From Octopus vulgaris (lineage: Eukaryota): DNA of 64,000 bases. This document shows, piece after piece, positions 378-63,778 of this stretch. A program made the position numbers and the translations under genes. Within the stretch, counting starts at the first letter, position 1, and each line of letters opens with the position of its first letter. Location: the NCBI GenBank assembly GCA_951406725.2, contig OX597824.1, forward strand, positions 82,708,001-82,772,000, given 5' to 3'. The notes under the pieces are model-generated. The model did no database searches and had not been told where the DNA came from. It worked only from the letters and a program-made list of their open reading frames with translations.

Positions 378-902
378 TGTTTAACATCTATATATCTGCT
401 GCATCGGAAATCTGCAATGGCTCCATAACTACTGTCTCGGTTACAACCTTGGAGCCTTTGTAATCCGTTACAGCACTTACCTAGCGTACCTAATCATTTA
501 GATCACCTGTGAACTAAACCCCCATACTTTATATATACATATATATATATATATATATATATATATATATATACACACACATGCATTTATGAGTACAGGA
601 TGTCACCAATGGTGAAAAGAACATGAAATACGTAAACAAACGAGAGAAAAACAAGTAAAATATGGAAAGCAGGACAAGTAAACACAGAGAAAAGACCCTT
701 CAGCAGTTGCCGACTGTCAATCTATTCCTTATTTCGAGCATTCAACAACAATATGAGTCTTCAAAGACCGTTGCTCCCATAAATTCTAAAATGAAATTTA
801 GGACTTATGGAGGGTCAAATTTGAGAACAAAACGATGAAAAAAATATGCATATATATATATATATATTTGAGTAGTTGAATGAATTTTGATGTCGACATA
901 AG

Positions 903-1001
903 TTCCTTGCCTTTCCTGATGAGAAATCTGCATAATGTACTCCTTATTCCTTCGGAATTAGGAATATGCAGCCTTCGAAACATATGTCGAAAATAAAGGA
1001 A
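903..1001 (+). ncRNA. Type I hammerhead ribozyme motif, intact core
   Basis: Stem I TTTC(912-915)/GAAA(989-992), extended by TTCCTT(903-908)/AAGGAA(996-1001). Core CTGATGA 916-922. Stem II GAA/TTC plus CTGCATA(928-934)/TATGCAG(965-971). GAAA 977-980. Palindromic stem III ACATATGT 980-987. GUC cleavage triplet ends at 988. Confidence 0.8.
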
Positions 1002-3454
1002 ATTTGTTAACAAGTCGCTCAACTCCATTCTTTCATAAACTTATATATATATATATATATATATATATATATATATAAATACACACAGAAGGGGAGAGAG
1101 AGTGATAAACCATGTGAGTAGCAACAAAAGAAGTAGACCTCTGTATCTTTGGAAATAGAGGACAAAAAGTATGAAGTGGCACAAGCATTGACCACTTACA
1201 TTTAGAACTCTGAGTTTCTAGGCAGGGAGTACTGGATACATCTCTGTCAAGAAACTCACAATAAAAGTACTCCAAGACTGCATTATTTAACATTATATAT
1301 ATATATTTACACAAATATATATATATATATATATACACACATACAGGAAATAATATTGGGGTTATAAGTGCAGGGGACATGGCAACCACCAAGAGAAATC
1401 AGGGTATAAGGGTGGATTTATATTAATGGAACCACTGTCTGCATAATAGTTACACAATCCAAAACATTACACAGGAAGCAATATCACCATGGTCAAATGA
1501 TTTACTAGAAACAGCAGTCAAAAATCCCTCACATTAGATACTACAATATTGAAAAAAAAAAGGAAGGATTCATTAGGCAATGCCAATTCTAGATACAGTA
1601 TGTATGAATGAAAAAGGGTGGATAGTCATGGCTGGAACAGTAGTCGCTGGTTAAATAGCAGTGATTGCCTTAATGTTTGTGGTTTTTTATATGAGTGTGT
1701 GTGTGTGTGTGTGTTTGTGAATTTATTATTATTATTGTTGTTCTTGTTCTTCTTGTTATTATTATATATCTCCGGTGGAGAGAGAGGAAAGTGGGGAGAA
1801 GGGGCTCGAGATATAACCCTTTATTTTTGAGAAAATAAGAAGATTCATGGGGTCAATTTCCTTTTAAAAAATTGTGCTCATTTATGTGTGTGTGTGTGTG
1901 TGTGTGTGTGTGTGTGTGTGTGTGTGTGTGAGTAAGAGAGAGAAATAAAAATATTATGTACATATACATATATGTACAGTTATATGTATGGACTATGTAT
2001 ATGTATACACACACACATATATACATGCATTTCTGTGTATATATTTTTGTATGTATATATATATGTATCTATATAGGTATATACATATATATGTGCATAT
2101 ACATGTATATATGTATATATATATTTATATGTATGTATGTATATACATCCAAATATATATATATATATATATATATATATATATATATATATATATATAT
2201 ATATATATATATATATATATATATAATTGCATGTATTTATGCATGTATCTGCATACATGTATATACATGTATGTATGTTTGCAACAAAAAAAAACAAAAA
2301 CCAATGGAGAAAGAAAAAAAAACAAATTGAGTACACAAGAGAGTAGAAAGAATGCAAATATAGGATGGAGTTTTGTTTCGTTCATAGAATCAGCCCTTAA
2401 AGAGGATACTCAAGGAGTTGAGCAAGTGTACAATTATATAAGGACCACTCTGAGCTTTTTGATGTGGTCTGAAAGTTAAGGCAAAGTGGATGTGTTGAAG
2501 AAGGTAAAAATGACATGGATGAATCCATTTGAGTGTGGTAGGTGTGGCAGGATATATAAGGGGTGAAATATTAGCACAGCATATTAAGAAGGATCAAGAG
2601 AATTGGTGGGAAAGGGGTGGCAGAGCTGATTTGTTTTTTGGGGAGGGGTTTTGTGTGTGTGTGTGTGTGTGTGTGTGTGTGTGTGTGTGTGTGTGTGTGT
2701 GTGTGTGTGTTTCTGGTTTTGTTGGGTTTGTGTTTATTTATGTTTAGGACAATCTGCTGATGAGAGAGTAACAAAGAAAATAATTGCTGGTTTTTCTGGG
2801 TTTCATGTGCTTTTCATGGTTTACATAAATACATACATATATACACATACACACACACACACACACACACACACACACATATATATATATATATATATAT
2901 ATATATATATATATACACTCATACATACATACATATATATATATATATATGCACAAACACACATACATATATATGCACACTTTCACAGACACAGACATAC
3001 ACATCACACACTATATCCGTGTGTGTATGTGTGTGACTGTGTGTGTAAGTGTATATATATGTATGTATACATGTATGTATATGTGTGCATGTGCATATGA
3101 ATATCTATACATATATATATATATATCTGTGTGTGTGAGTGTGTGTGTGTGTGTTTGTGTGTGTGTGTGTGTGTGTGTGTGTGTGTGTGTGTGCGTGTGT
3201 GCAAGAGGGAGCTTGTAAATTGTATAAAAGTACAGGAAATGTTTTGCTTGTTTTGTTTTGCTTTATCATTTTTTTTTTTCCATTTTTTTAAAAAATCTTT
3301 GTCATCAATTTGTTTGGAATGAATGATACGACTCTTATAAAAATTGTGTAGAATGATATGATAATTACAATAATAGGAATAAAAATTATTAATTTCAATG
3401 GAATGAAGCTTAATTTACATATATTCAGGTGGAGGTGGTATAACCACATTCACA

Positions 3455-3480
3455 AGGTCACACTAGGTCACTCTAGGTCA
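3455..3480 (+). promoter_or_regulatory. Three AGGTCA half-sites spaced by 4 nt (double DR4 nuclear-receptor element or 10-bp minirepeat)
   Basis: AGGTCA-cact-AGGTCA-ctct-AGGTCA in non-repetitive sequence. The motif is directly visible; function is unproven. Confidence 0.3.
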
Positions 3481-3537
3481 CACTAAAATATCTGGATCTA
3501 ATTTCTGGAGTTGACCGACAGCTACTTTTTCAGGACT

Positions 3538-61055: not shown

Positions 61056-62499
61056 TATAAATCTGAAATTGAATAATTAAGATAATGACACAAATTTAAT
61101 TCAAAAGTACAGAAATAAAGCATCAATAAATGAATGACCACAAAGATAAAAATATACATATATACACTTAAATATATATATCATCATCATCATCGTTTAA
61201 CATCCGTTTTCCATGCTGGCATGGGTCGGACGGTTTGACTGAGGACTGGCAAGCCAGGAAGCTGCACATGGCTCCAATGTGATCCGTTCAGATGGTGCTT
61301 TTTCACATGTCAGTGGCACAGGGAGCCAGTCAGGCGACACTGGCATCGGCCACAACACAACAATTTCTATTTTTTTGTTTCAAGTTGATTCAGACTCTTA
61401 ATGTTATTTTGATATATATATATATATATATATATATATATATATATATATATATGTATATGTATATGTATATATATATATATATATATATATGCATACA
61501 TATATATATATATACACACATACATACATATACATATATATATATATATACATACATATACATACATACATATATATATATATATATACATACATATACA
61601 TACATACATATACATACATACATACACATATATATATATATATATACATATACATACATACATACATATACATATATATATATATATATACACATACATA
61701 CATATATATACATATACATATATACATATACATATATACATAAACATATATATATATATATATATATATATATATATATATATATATATACACACATATG
61801 TATGTATTCACAGGATTTGTTGGTCCCCGAGAGGGCAAAAAGGGCAAAAAGGGCAAATGAACAACAGTTTGATGGGATTATAGACAAATAAGATGCTGCA
61901 ATGGTATTTTTATCTGAGTGGTCACCCAAATGGTCAACTGACAGATACATGGTTCAATTTCTCTCAGTGGATGTTTGTTACTCTTGTCTTTCTTAAACTG
62001 GTGATTTTATAATATGTAATCATTATCCTTTTTTATACCAACATCATCACCACCATCATCATCATCATCATTATCATCACTACCACCACTACTATCACAA
62101 GTGCCAGCACAATTGTTTTTGCTGACATCACCTTCACCAACATTCAAGATTAATTATCGTTAGCACCATCACAACCATCTCGACACCATCACCACCATCA
62201 TCACTATCACCACCACCATCACTATCACCACCTCCACCACCACCACCACCGACACCATCACCACCATCATCACTACCACCACCACCACCACCACCACCAC
62301 CACCACCACCACCACCACAAACACCACCACCACAAACACTACTGTCTTCACCATCATCACAAACATTATCACTACTGCCATCACCACGACCATCACTATC
62401 ACCACCACTACCACAAATACCACCACCACCACCACCACAAACACTACTGCCATCACCACCATCATAATTATCATCACCATCACCATCAGATTGATGTTT

Positions 62500-63340
62500 T
62501 TACCATTCTTGCAGAGGATGGCTGAGAGTTCTTTAGCATAGCATCTTGCCACTTGTAGCCCAGTCCTTCATCCGCTTAATAACAGCTTCTTGAGATCACT
62601 GGCCAAAAGGAGGGACAGCCTGTGGAGTGCAGTCGTCATCTTTCAGCCCATGTCTTCTCTGGTCTTCTTCTTCTAGGTTCCTCCAACTTGTGTTGCTTGG
62701 CACTTCTTGAAGCAACTGTCATCCTCCATACACAACACATACATCATCAATATCATCATCATCATTATCATCATCATCATCCTCACCATCTTCATTATCA
62801 TCATCATCATCCTCATCATCATCATCATCATCATCCTCACCATCTTCATCATCACCATCATCATCATCATCATCATCATCATCGTTTAACGTCCGCTTTC
62901 CATGCTGGCATGGGTCGGATGGTTTGACTGGGAACTGTACAACCCAAAGTCTTCTCTCTTGCATACAACATCTAACTCACTTCTTGCATCCAATTTTCCT
63001 CTCACCTCATTAAACTTTTTATCATCCATGCTCACTAATGCTACACATTGAGTGCTACATGCTTGCTTCATTTCTTCCCATCTTTCACGCCACTGCATTC
63101 TCCGCATTAAGTGCTCGTATTTTACAACCATGCAACAGAGCACTTCACAACACTTAAACCACACGCTCCACTCTTCACTCACACTCGGTAGAAGTAATAT
63201 CACTCTGACCTTTTTTTTCGGCTCACTCATACTCAGGCTCGCTATGCTTTTTGGAACAGCTTCGTTCGCTTCTGTTTTGGTCACCAAGGTAACAGAAGCC
63301 ATCAAACTATGTCTATTGAGCAACTAAGCATTTGGAAAAA
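62500..63340 (-). mobile_element. Decayed RTE-like LINE 3' fragment, interrupted by (ATC)n
   Basis: Broken minus-strand translation includes LHGCKI.ALN, NEASML, VRGKL, QERRLW, VLCMEDDSCFKKC and RRRPEKTW, typical of the RTE ORF C-terminus. Confidence 0.7.
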
Positions 63341-63548
63341 GTTCCTTTTATGGATTGGGCTACTACAGCTAGTTTAATCAATCATATGCATTTGGTGCAA
63401 ACTAAGTCATTCCTAGAGTCAACCTGCCTGTGAACCTGCAGCAAGAGGGGGAGGAGGAGAAGAAAGAGAAAAGAAATTGAGAGAAAGTGGGAGAGAGAGC
63501 AAAAGCAGTGCTGTATGAGATGGTACTATATATATATATATATATATA

Positions 63549-63778
63549 CTTTATTTAAAGCAGCAGAAAATTCAACAAAACCTGTTACTCTGAGTTTCCC
63601 GTTGCCGTTCGTCTGACAGTTTTTGCTAGAAAAAAACTGTCGACCGAACGGCAACGGGAAACTCAGAGCAACAGGTTTTGTTGAATTTTCTGCTGCTTTA
63701 AATAAAGCATATTACTCTACCACTGGTATTTGAGTACTCTTTTTCCACCTTGTTTCACATGTATGTGTTTACTCCGGT
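63549..63778. mobile_element. Palindromic short element in (TA)n with hammerhead-like motif in both arms and a unique 3' tail
   Basis: 63549-63624 and 63632-63707 are near-perfect reverse complements; each arm reads AAAACTGT-C(AGA/GAC)CGA-ACG-GCAA-CGG-GAAA-CTCAGAG-(T/C)A-ACAGGTTTT. Confidence 0.75.

Follow-up and report, generated by a model that had tools for sequence, protein, structure and literature searches.

In a 64,000-nucleotide stretch of the Octopus vulgaris genome (contig OX597824.1, positions 82,708,001 to 82,772,000; hereafter the window), a series of hammerhead ribozyme-shaped motifs is, with high probability, a set of 5'-truncated terminal repeats from several families of Penelope-like elements (PLEs), four of which are joined elsewhere to reverse transcriptase (RT) or endonuclease (EN) coding sequence. 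As part of the same reading, a tRNA-like cassette in one of them, family B, likely marks the start of transcription and may be an RNA polymerase III (Pol III) promoter. The original prediction for this DNA, made from its letters, proposed a diverse population of non-autonomous, retrozyme-like elements. Since inverted pairs, one-sided tails and TA targeting are already published for PLEs, what was originally posed amounts to ordinary PLE debris. Novelty lies in family B, a coding PLE that is not TA-targeted and has a tRNA-like cassette; this cassette, the one unusual feature, was missed in the prediction.

Truncated Penelope-like ends in the window

The genome searched (G000, of which the window is a part) comprises 2.8 Gb in 227 contigs. 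Every main site named in the original prediction proved to be a dispersed repeat, and the letters at those places matched their earlier description. The repeat families were labelled A (881), B (60657/60955), C (63577/63633), D (8127), E (8573), F (14276) and G (40.1 kb). First-look searches gave 1529 candidates for A, 4673 for B, 1429 for C, 379 for D, 2569 for E and 1231 for F; these totals are not copy numbers, and 40 candidates were scored per family.

Coding partners were found for four families. Family A occurred in L357 with RT, EN, a terminal repeat and an inverted upstream repeat, and in L358 the family C repeat ran unbroken into an RT-EN open reading frame (ORF). Family B had a 569-codon RT-EN frame in L285, a near-full copy in L355, and 2989 homologs among 7999 scored candidates. 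The partner of family E was an endonuclease only, with an inverted copy in L359 matching (by eye) the untranslated region (UTR) behind it. GIY-YIG domains were assigned by motif and tblastn; Pfam returned E 0.059 for the family E endonuclease and no match for that of family B. With coding sequence following on in other copies of A, B, C and E, the stubs of these four families are truncated PLE ends and not independent retrozymes. The motifs were rightly described as hammerhead-bearing, Penelope-related, often inverted and often TA-associated, and the proposed search for autonomous partners yielded RT plus EN for A, B and C and EN for E, but terminal repeats of coding PLEs are what the prediction had itself named as contrary to a retrozyme-like population.

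Outside family B, the features of the window are as follows.

867 to 886, minus strand: family A, inverted last ~20 nt of a ~140-nt tail.
881 to 1042, plus strand: family A terminal repeat with an intact type I hammerhead at 912-992 (core 916) and its 3' end at (TA)n, from a young Neptune-like coding PLE.
8051 to 8240, strand unassigned: family D remnant; the hairpin at 8127-8219 is an inverted duplicate with the GAAA/stem III half only.
8548 to 8745, plus strand: family E terminal repeat with a short inverted arm at ~8548-8572 and a hammerhead at 8573-8633 whose CGAAA is lost; linked to a GIY-YIG ORF in L359.
14270 to 14398, plus strand: family F terminal repeat with a hammerhead at 14282-14365 whose CGAAA is lost; 7 of 14 other loci have it intact, and there is no coding partner among the loci examined.
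39986 to 40420, minus strand: family G repeat end at (TA)n, with a hammerhead-like, non-canonical core near 40085.
63544 to 63623, minus strand: family C inverted arm with a degenerate core, ending at (TA)n.
63633 to 63780, plus strand: family C terminal repeat with a degenerate core (family CCGAYGA), continuing into a Neptune-like RT-EN ORF in L358.

The window is 35% GC and dense in microsatellites, and PLE stubs make up ~3% of it. A strict type I descriptor detected a single intact hammerhead, with its core at 916 (family A), whereas all 30 block shuffles gave none; allowing one core mismatch produced one match in 5 of the 30 shuffles, and a relaxed descriptor again returned core 916 alone in the window. 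At the family level the claim of at least six hammerhead-shaped motifs holds up, whereas among the window copies one is intact, and the parses at 8127 and 63577/63633 were wrong. Descriptor-intact hammerheads were present in 17 of 19 family A loci (some matches coming from neighbouring families), 8 of 19 family B loci and 7 of 14 family F loci, and by this descriptor the predicted hammerheads in the terminal repeats of A, B and F are type I. Those of C, D and E were recognised by eye only. The window copy of D at 8127 lacks CUGANGA, and the family core was seen by eye in the longer copies L070 and L072; stem II of family E is bulged (by eye); and the core of family C is usually CCGAYGA instead of CTGANGA (L044-L053), both window arms being degenerate. 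A CCGACGA core was also observed in L083.

As predicted, the families are unrelated in sequence, with cross-family DNA similarity limited to 9-14 nt. Single-strand folds were mostly no better than shuffles, family A alone reaching z -2.5. Rfam gave no hammerhead family among the best 150 of 505 matches to the window, and no tRNA or hammerhead among the matches listed for the family B site, L234 and L365. ARAGORN made no tRNA call in the window or in 17 foreign loci, and neither a PDB search nor viral contigs gave a match. Of the weaker motifs proposed, those at 19.2 and 31.1 kb had no descriptor match and no second copy among the loci examined (no genome-wide search was made), while the one at 40.1 kb lies in a repeat with a hammerhead-like core that is non-canonical. 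In this family G repeat (window 40040-40090, minus strand), GACTGA-GA and TTCGAATG are invariant in 7 of 7 aligned copies; the flanks are paired but the canonical GAAA/UH is absent, and the structure is a possible hammerhead variant.

Inverted pairs were confirmed in the window, and an inverted 5'-truncated partner together with a one-sided tail was found in families A, B, C, E and F. Most of the motifs had been said to abut (TA)n. The 3' ends of A, C, E and G do touch such an array and that of F lies 16 nt off, but D is 145 nt and B 837 and 356 nt away, where 12% of random positions fall within 25 nt. In family samples, 27 of 30 A copies were near (TA)5, compared with 2 of 100 B copies and 10 of 236 background positions. 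Families A, C and E target (TA)n; family B does not. Different TA-targeting PLE families are stacked on the same (TA)n arrays in L053, L055, L098 and L360. The three predicted CGAAA to CAAAA lesions are carried by 8573 (E), 14276 (F) and 60955 (B). The CG before AAA in family B is 77-84% conserved, within the range of other CpGs, and these lesions probably represent CpG decay after insertion.

These properties match what is described for PLEs in the parts of the literature covered here. Opposite-strand pairs 100-700 bp apart and solo motifs have been interpreted as truncated PLEs (Cervera and de la Pena 2014, PMC4209133); inverted truncated copies, one-sided tails and a (TA)n bias are known (Craig 2021, PMC8557442); and an anole element shows internal RT initiation in vitro and nicking of AT-rich DNA (Frangieh 2024, PMC11167929). 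An O. vulgaris annotation assigns 6.83% of the genome to 190 PLE families. The element's GIY-YIG endonuclease would nick AT-rich DNA, RT would start inside the RNA a short way into the ORF, as the anole enzyme does in vitro, and copying back through the hammerhead would usually stop early. Stubs of 150-450 nt would result, often with a fold-back inverted partner that has no tail.

Families A, C and E may belong to the Neptune clade, a label given on motifs; a Cys-containing RT-EN linker was visible in the family E endonuclease and not in family A. Family A copies are 97-99% alike, and the family is therefore young. In its ORF (L357; L012), RT and endonuclease are separated by a long low-complexity region rich in Asn and Ser. 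Two further stretches of the window were noted. Positions 53512-57759 hold a tandem duplication with a period of ~2.1 kb and parts 82-96% alike, and 31138-31254 on the minus strand is a short open frame, possibly a host exon, with no copy among the loci examined; the peptide at 31.1 kb has a weak Pfam match (E 0.13).

A tRNA-like cassette in the coding element B

Family B is present in the window as a short copy and its inverted partner.

60576 to 60854, minus strand: family B short copy with tRNA-like cassette, (AAT)n, ATG, hammerhead and tail.
60784 to 60854, minus strand: family B tRNA-like cassette (A box 60839-60849, B box 60795-60804), a predicted Pol III internal promoter.
60578 to 60731, minus strand: start of the family B ORF, ~51 codons from the ATG at 60729-60731 onward; this stretch overlaps the hammerhead at 60657-60702 and the one-sided tail at 60578-60608.
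60871 to 61057, plus strand: family B inverted 5'-truncated partner with a hammerhead at 60955-61000 (CGAAA lost), without tail.

The hammerhead at 60657 has lost the CpG of stem III. The lack of a Zn-finger linker, a hammerhead that overlaps the ORF start and the absence of microsatellite bias are Penelope/Poseidon-type traits, and on these sequence characters family B is a coding element of that type; its tree was a quick one, made with unnamed homologs and no named reference elements. The order of parts in the family is stop codon, ~30-nt spacer, 73-nt tRNA-like cassette, (AAT)n, ATG, in-frame hammerhead and in-frame tail, so that the cassette sits between the stop codon of one unit and the ATG and hammerhead of the next. 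A further 30 nt on the 5' side are common to two B copies. A pattern search on this stretch gave 550 matches, and of 30 that were sampled most continue into the end of the GIY-YIG ORF. The cassette, whole or in part, follows the stop codon in ~26 of 30 EN-selected B loci (by eye). On the other side, the tail continues into the ORF in L176 and L473, and the peptide encoded by the hammerhead recurs at the N-terminus of the homologs P0004 and P0120. Family B has two common 3' ends, ~123 and ~153 nt after the ATG; for PAc, the Anolis element, internal RT starts are reported at 111-118 nt (Frangieh 2024, PMC11167929). Long B copies with many small internal deletions in the leader region were also observed (L255-L284).

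The A and B boxes of the cassette match consensus and are held at tRNA spacing, while the cloverleaf is broken (acceptor stem 3/7, T stem 2/5). Against genuine tRNAs of this genome, represented by 25 different sequences taken from 30 loci, the cassette aligned with a best z of 8.5, with the tRNA of anticodon TCG, and 0 of 200 shuffles did so. It was not called as a tRNA by ARAGORN (23 B loci) or Rfam. Its TACTAAC, taken as a branch point, had no matching joint among 15 of 53 joints listed. Judged by its sequence, the cassette is a tRNA-derived head whose A and B boxes form a predicted promoter.

Copy ends, T runs and the polymerase of family B

Exact 25-26-mer matches in G000 numbered 5485 for the hammerhead, 3635 for the cassette and 550 for the stretch just 5' of it. 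To locate 5' ends, we used the hammerhead-sampled copies that remained after removal of those ending before the cassette, together with 30 cassette-sampled copies (73 instances). Relative to the cassette start, 33 ends lay at -8 to +5, 18 at +6 to +38 and 8 at -20 to -11 (mostly fold-backs), while 6 were further upstream and 8 copies extended past -290. The end rate per base was 5.7% at the cassette start, 0.76% inside the cassette and 0.22% upstream. Since more copies begin at the first base of the cassette than anywhere else, many stubs would copy the whole 5' leader of the RNA. RNA synthesis would start at the cassette; priming of RT in the ORF start of the first unit would yield stubs as long as the leader, and priming in the following unit would yield full copies.

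The accumulation of ends might also reflect a stop or fold-back hotspot of RT at a small palindrome that straddles the cassette start, in which case it says nothing of promoters. Many junctions are indeed local fold-backs at this position, loose ends of fold-backs occur there in 423 and 331 reads, and families A and C break near palindromes too. We regard this as unlikely, because some two dozen of the boundary ends (by eye) connect to inverted sequence far away, to direct repeats or to flank that is unrelated, and neither the conservation of the boxes nor the loss of T runs described below is accounted for. Reads from two raw, unstranded RNA runs, of which ~6% was read, continued into unlike flanks in 73-78% of cases and showed no pile-up of starts or ends on a B copy, and are uninformative on polymerase and cleavage.

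Several observations weigh against truncated PLE ends and a start at the B cassette. In three families the descriptor found hardly any intact core (C 1 of 19 loci, D 0 of 14, E 1 of 14, the E match being from another family), and no coding partner for D, F or G was present among the loci examined (the search was not genome-wide). No single natural copy with both cassette and full downstream ORF was seen, contiguity being drawn from the overlapping copies L473 and L176. Before the cassette is reached, 45 of 100 hammerhead-sampled B copies end. The 5'-end sample consists of the places that come first on a single contig; arm pairs and duplicates are among them, its members are not fully independent, and family A has an end cluster as well, a weaker one (8 of 30 within 13 nt). 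In L010, TGACGTCA and TATAAA words lie just 5' of this end cluster, 59-100 nt before the hammerhead pattern of family A.

When 48 long B copies were compared with 72 short ones, no column told the two apart (the lowest uncorrected P was 0.034), and divergence was 6.4% in long and 5.4% in short copies; the short form is therefore not a separate lineage. A non-coding lineage with its own masters was not borne out, the head being inside a coding element, and a free-standing, PLE-mobilised SINE with a tRNA head was dropped, as longer copies run into the EN ORF. The B stubs appear to resemble a tRNA-headed SINE yet to derive from the coding element itself. These comparisons bear also on the idea that the window motifs are mini-elements of retrozyme type, independent of coding PLEs, non-autonomous and moved in trans. 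In its favour, short copies greatly exceed long ones in number, D, F and G are without a coding partner among the loci examined and may themselves be non-autonomous, and retrozymes derived from PLE terminal repeats are described (Li 2026, bioRxiv 10.64898/2026.07.22.740005). A head-to-tail tandem of non-coding hammerhead units, by which retrozymes are recognised, was absent from the window; one family C array, which would fit the idea, was found elsewhere (L042:767-1910, ~five inverted-pair units split by (TA)n, satellite-like). Such mini-elements are nonetheless very improbable, given the continuation of A, B, C and E into coding sequence, the ragged 5' ends, the likeness of long and short B copies, and the need of PAc RT initiation for ORF sequence beyond the tail, which solo stubs lack (Frangieh 2024, PMC11167929, in the part covered).

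Returning to the cassette as a start of transcription, we examined runs of four T (T4), at which Pol III would terminate. The sense strand of two near-full-length B copies (2.6 kb) is free of TTTT. Among runs of at least three T, T4 accounted for 0/25, 0/21, 1/16, 1/11 and 0/8 in five long B copies and for 40/661 in B copies over 120 kb, where those in the ORF were all singletons and none was common to more than 9 of 192 copies. The corresponding values were 45/116 in families A, C and E and 358/1053 in foreign Penelope loci (4.8 per kb at matching T content), the latter being 51 of 79 loci, most of those with matches over ~800 nt. Phe codons in B favour TTC over TTT (16:6, 9:1, 4:3), whereas Asn and Asp lack such a C bias.

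Among the 79 foreign loci, a scan for A and B boxes gave a match in L365 and another in L385, the latter at a place not covered by the PLE match of that locus. L365 (2821-5612, a metagenome contig) is an intact tandem Penelope element (P0120, 855 aa) in which A and B boxes, AAT repeats, ATG and hammerhead follow in that order. Its cassette gave z up to 5.8 against 8 tRNAs, and its unit of 2791 nt has 2 T4 and no run of five T. In the quick tree it is not sister to B. TATAAG precedes the cassette in both, its position being -34 for B and -31 for L365. A TATA-like word is also present, by eye, in five relatives that have no cassette, ~37-42 nt ahead of the hammerhead.

We tentatively favour, without calling it probable, transcription of the whole coding element B by Pol III from the tRNA-derived boxes, with the TATA-like word at -34 helping and T4 terminators purged; the same RNA would template short and full copies, and protein would come from uncapped RNA or from polymerase II (Pol II) read-through. 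Consistent with this are the boxes, whose tRNA spacing is preserved in spite of broken acceptor and T stems, the alignment to genuine tRNAs, the scarcity of T4 relative to families A, C and E and foreign loci, the TTC preference with no parallel in Asn or Asp, and the same design and T4 scarcity in L365. On the other hand, the T4 deficit is modest against B's own composition (dinucleotide P 0.023; codon shuffle P 0.24-0.63; 2.7 T4 expected under an order-2 Markov model vs 0.4 seen), and pyrimidine tracts are depleted in general. The GC-rich relatives L373, L376 and L482 are also T4-free over 1-1.6 kb; L482 is without the cassette, and in L373 and L376 the UTR falls outside the sequence seen. 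The 5' third of the B ORF is covered by 3-9 copies only, uncapped RNA is poorly translated, and ARAGORN and Rfam do not call the cassette. L482:457-1700 is itself a Penelope-type element in a contig of a bacterial metagenome-assembled genome, probably contamination from the host animal.

A TATAAG 31-34 nt before the cassette means that the start site of B is explained by either polymerase. It is conceivable, if rather less than probable, that transcription begins near -6 to -1 under a TATA promoter of Pol II type lying just upstream, that the tRNA-like piece is a captured 5' UTR passenger and that low T4 reflects avoidance of U-rich signals. The TATA-like words of the cassette-free relatives would fit, as would the likening of the internal promoter of D. 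virilis Penelope to LINE promoters and the general depletion of pyrimidine tracts (0.8 per kb vs 2.3-3.1). Left unexplained are why the boxes alone are intact, why runs stop at three T, and why two cassette-bearing families rank among the most T4-poor; a TATA at -30 serves Pol III promoters too.

Comparison with known systems

Autonomous retrotransposons are usually assumed to be transcribed by Pol II or by read-through from the host. Transcription of a coding PLE by Pol III, as the boxes and T runs suggest is possible, would raise the question of how such an RNA is translated and what role a hammerhead in the ORF start plays, would blur the divide between SINE and LINE, and predicts that genome-wide, tRNA cassettes in PLE leaders should accompany T4-free sense strands. 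No tRNA-headed or Pol III-driven PLE was found among the papers listed in literature searches; Repbase, Dfam and SINEBase lay outside this search, and B may already be catalogued there.

Families A, C and E resemble Neptune/Hydra-type PLEs in (TA)n insertion, inverted truncated copies, a one-sided tail and terminal-repeat hammerheads, and no difference was found from the part of that description covered (Craig 2021, PMC8557442), the CCGAYGA core of family C being a variant. Minimal PLE hammerheads likewise occur as many unrelated families per genome, as solo motifs and as opposite-strand pairs, with a palindromic stem III; the part of the study covered has no cephalopod data (PMC4209133). Like PAc of Anolis, family B has a single ORF of RT and C-terminal GIY-YIG, a hammerhead over the start of that frame, a tail delimited by two 3' ends within the frame, and no microsatellite targeting; unlike PAc as described in the part covered (Frangieh 2024, PMC11167929), where neither is mentioned, it has a predicted tRNA-like promoter and loss of T4.

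Non-LTR retrozymes share the type I hammerhead and PLE kinship, but form tandem arrays with a hammerhead in each unit, whereas the copies in the window are solo or inverted stubs (Li 2026, in the part covered). Similar in layout to the head of B are the schistosome SM-alpha and Sj-alpha repeats, in which a Pol III-type promoter precedes a type I hammerhead; as far as the parts covered describe them, these are non-coding tandem repeats (PMC6765202, PMC8490949), whereas the cassette of B belongs to a coding element, and the short B copies are scattered. B may be, and we say so with reserve, an autonomous coding retrotransposon that Pol III transcribes over its whole length, using a tRNA promoter that was captured, that has had T4 purged from its 2.7-kb sense strand, and that sheds thousands of SINE-like hammerhead leader copies; the L365 lineage would have arrived independently at the same design, and the two would represent a recurring type of PLE and a route to hammerhead SINEs such as SM-alpha.

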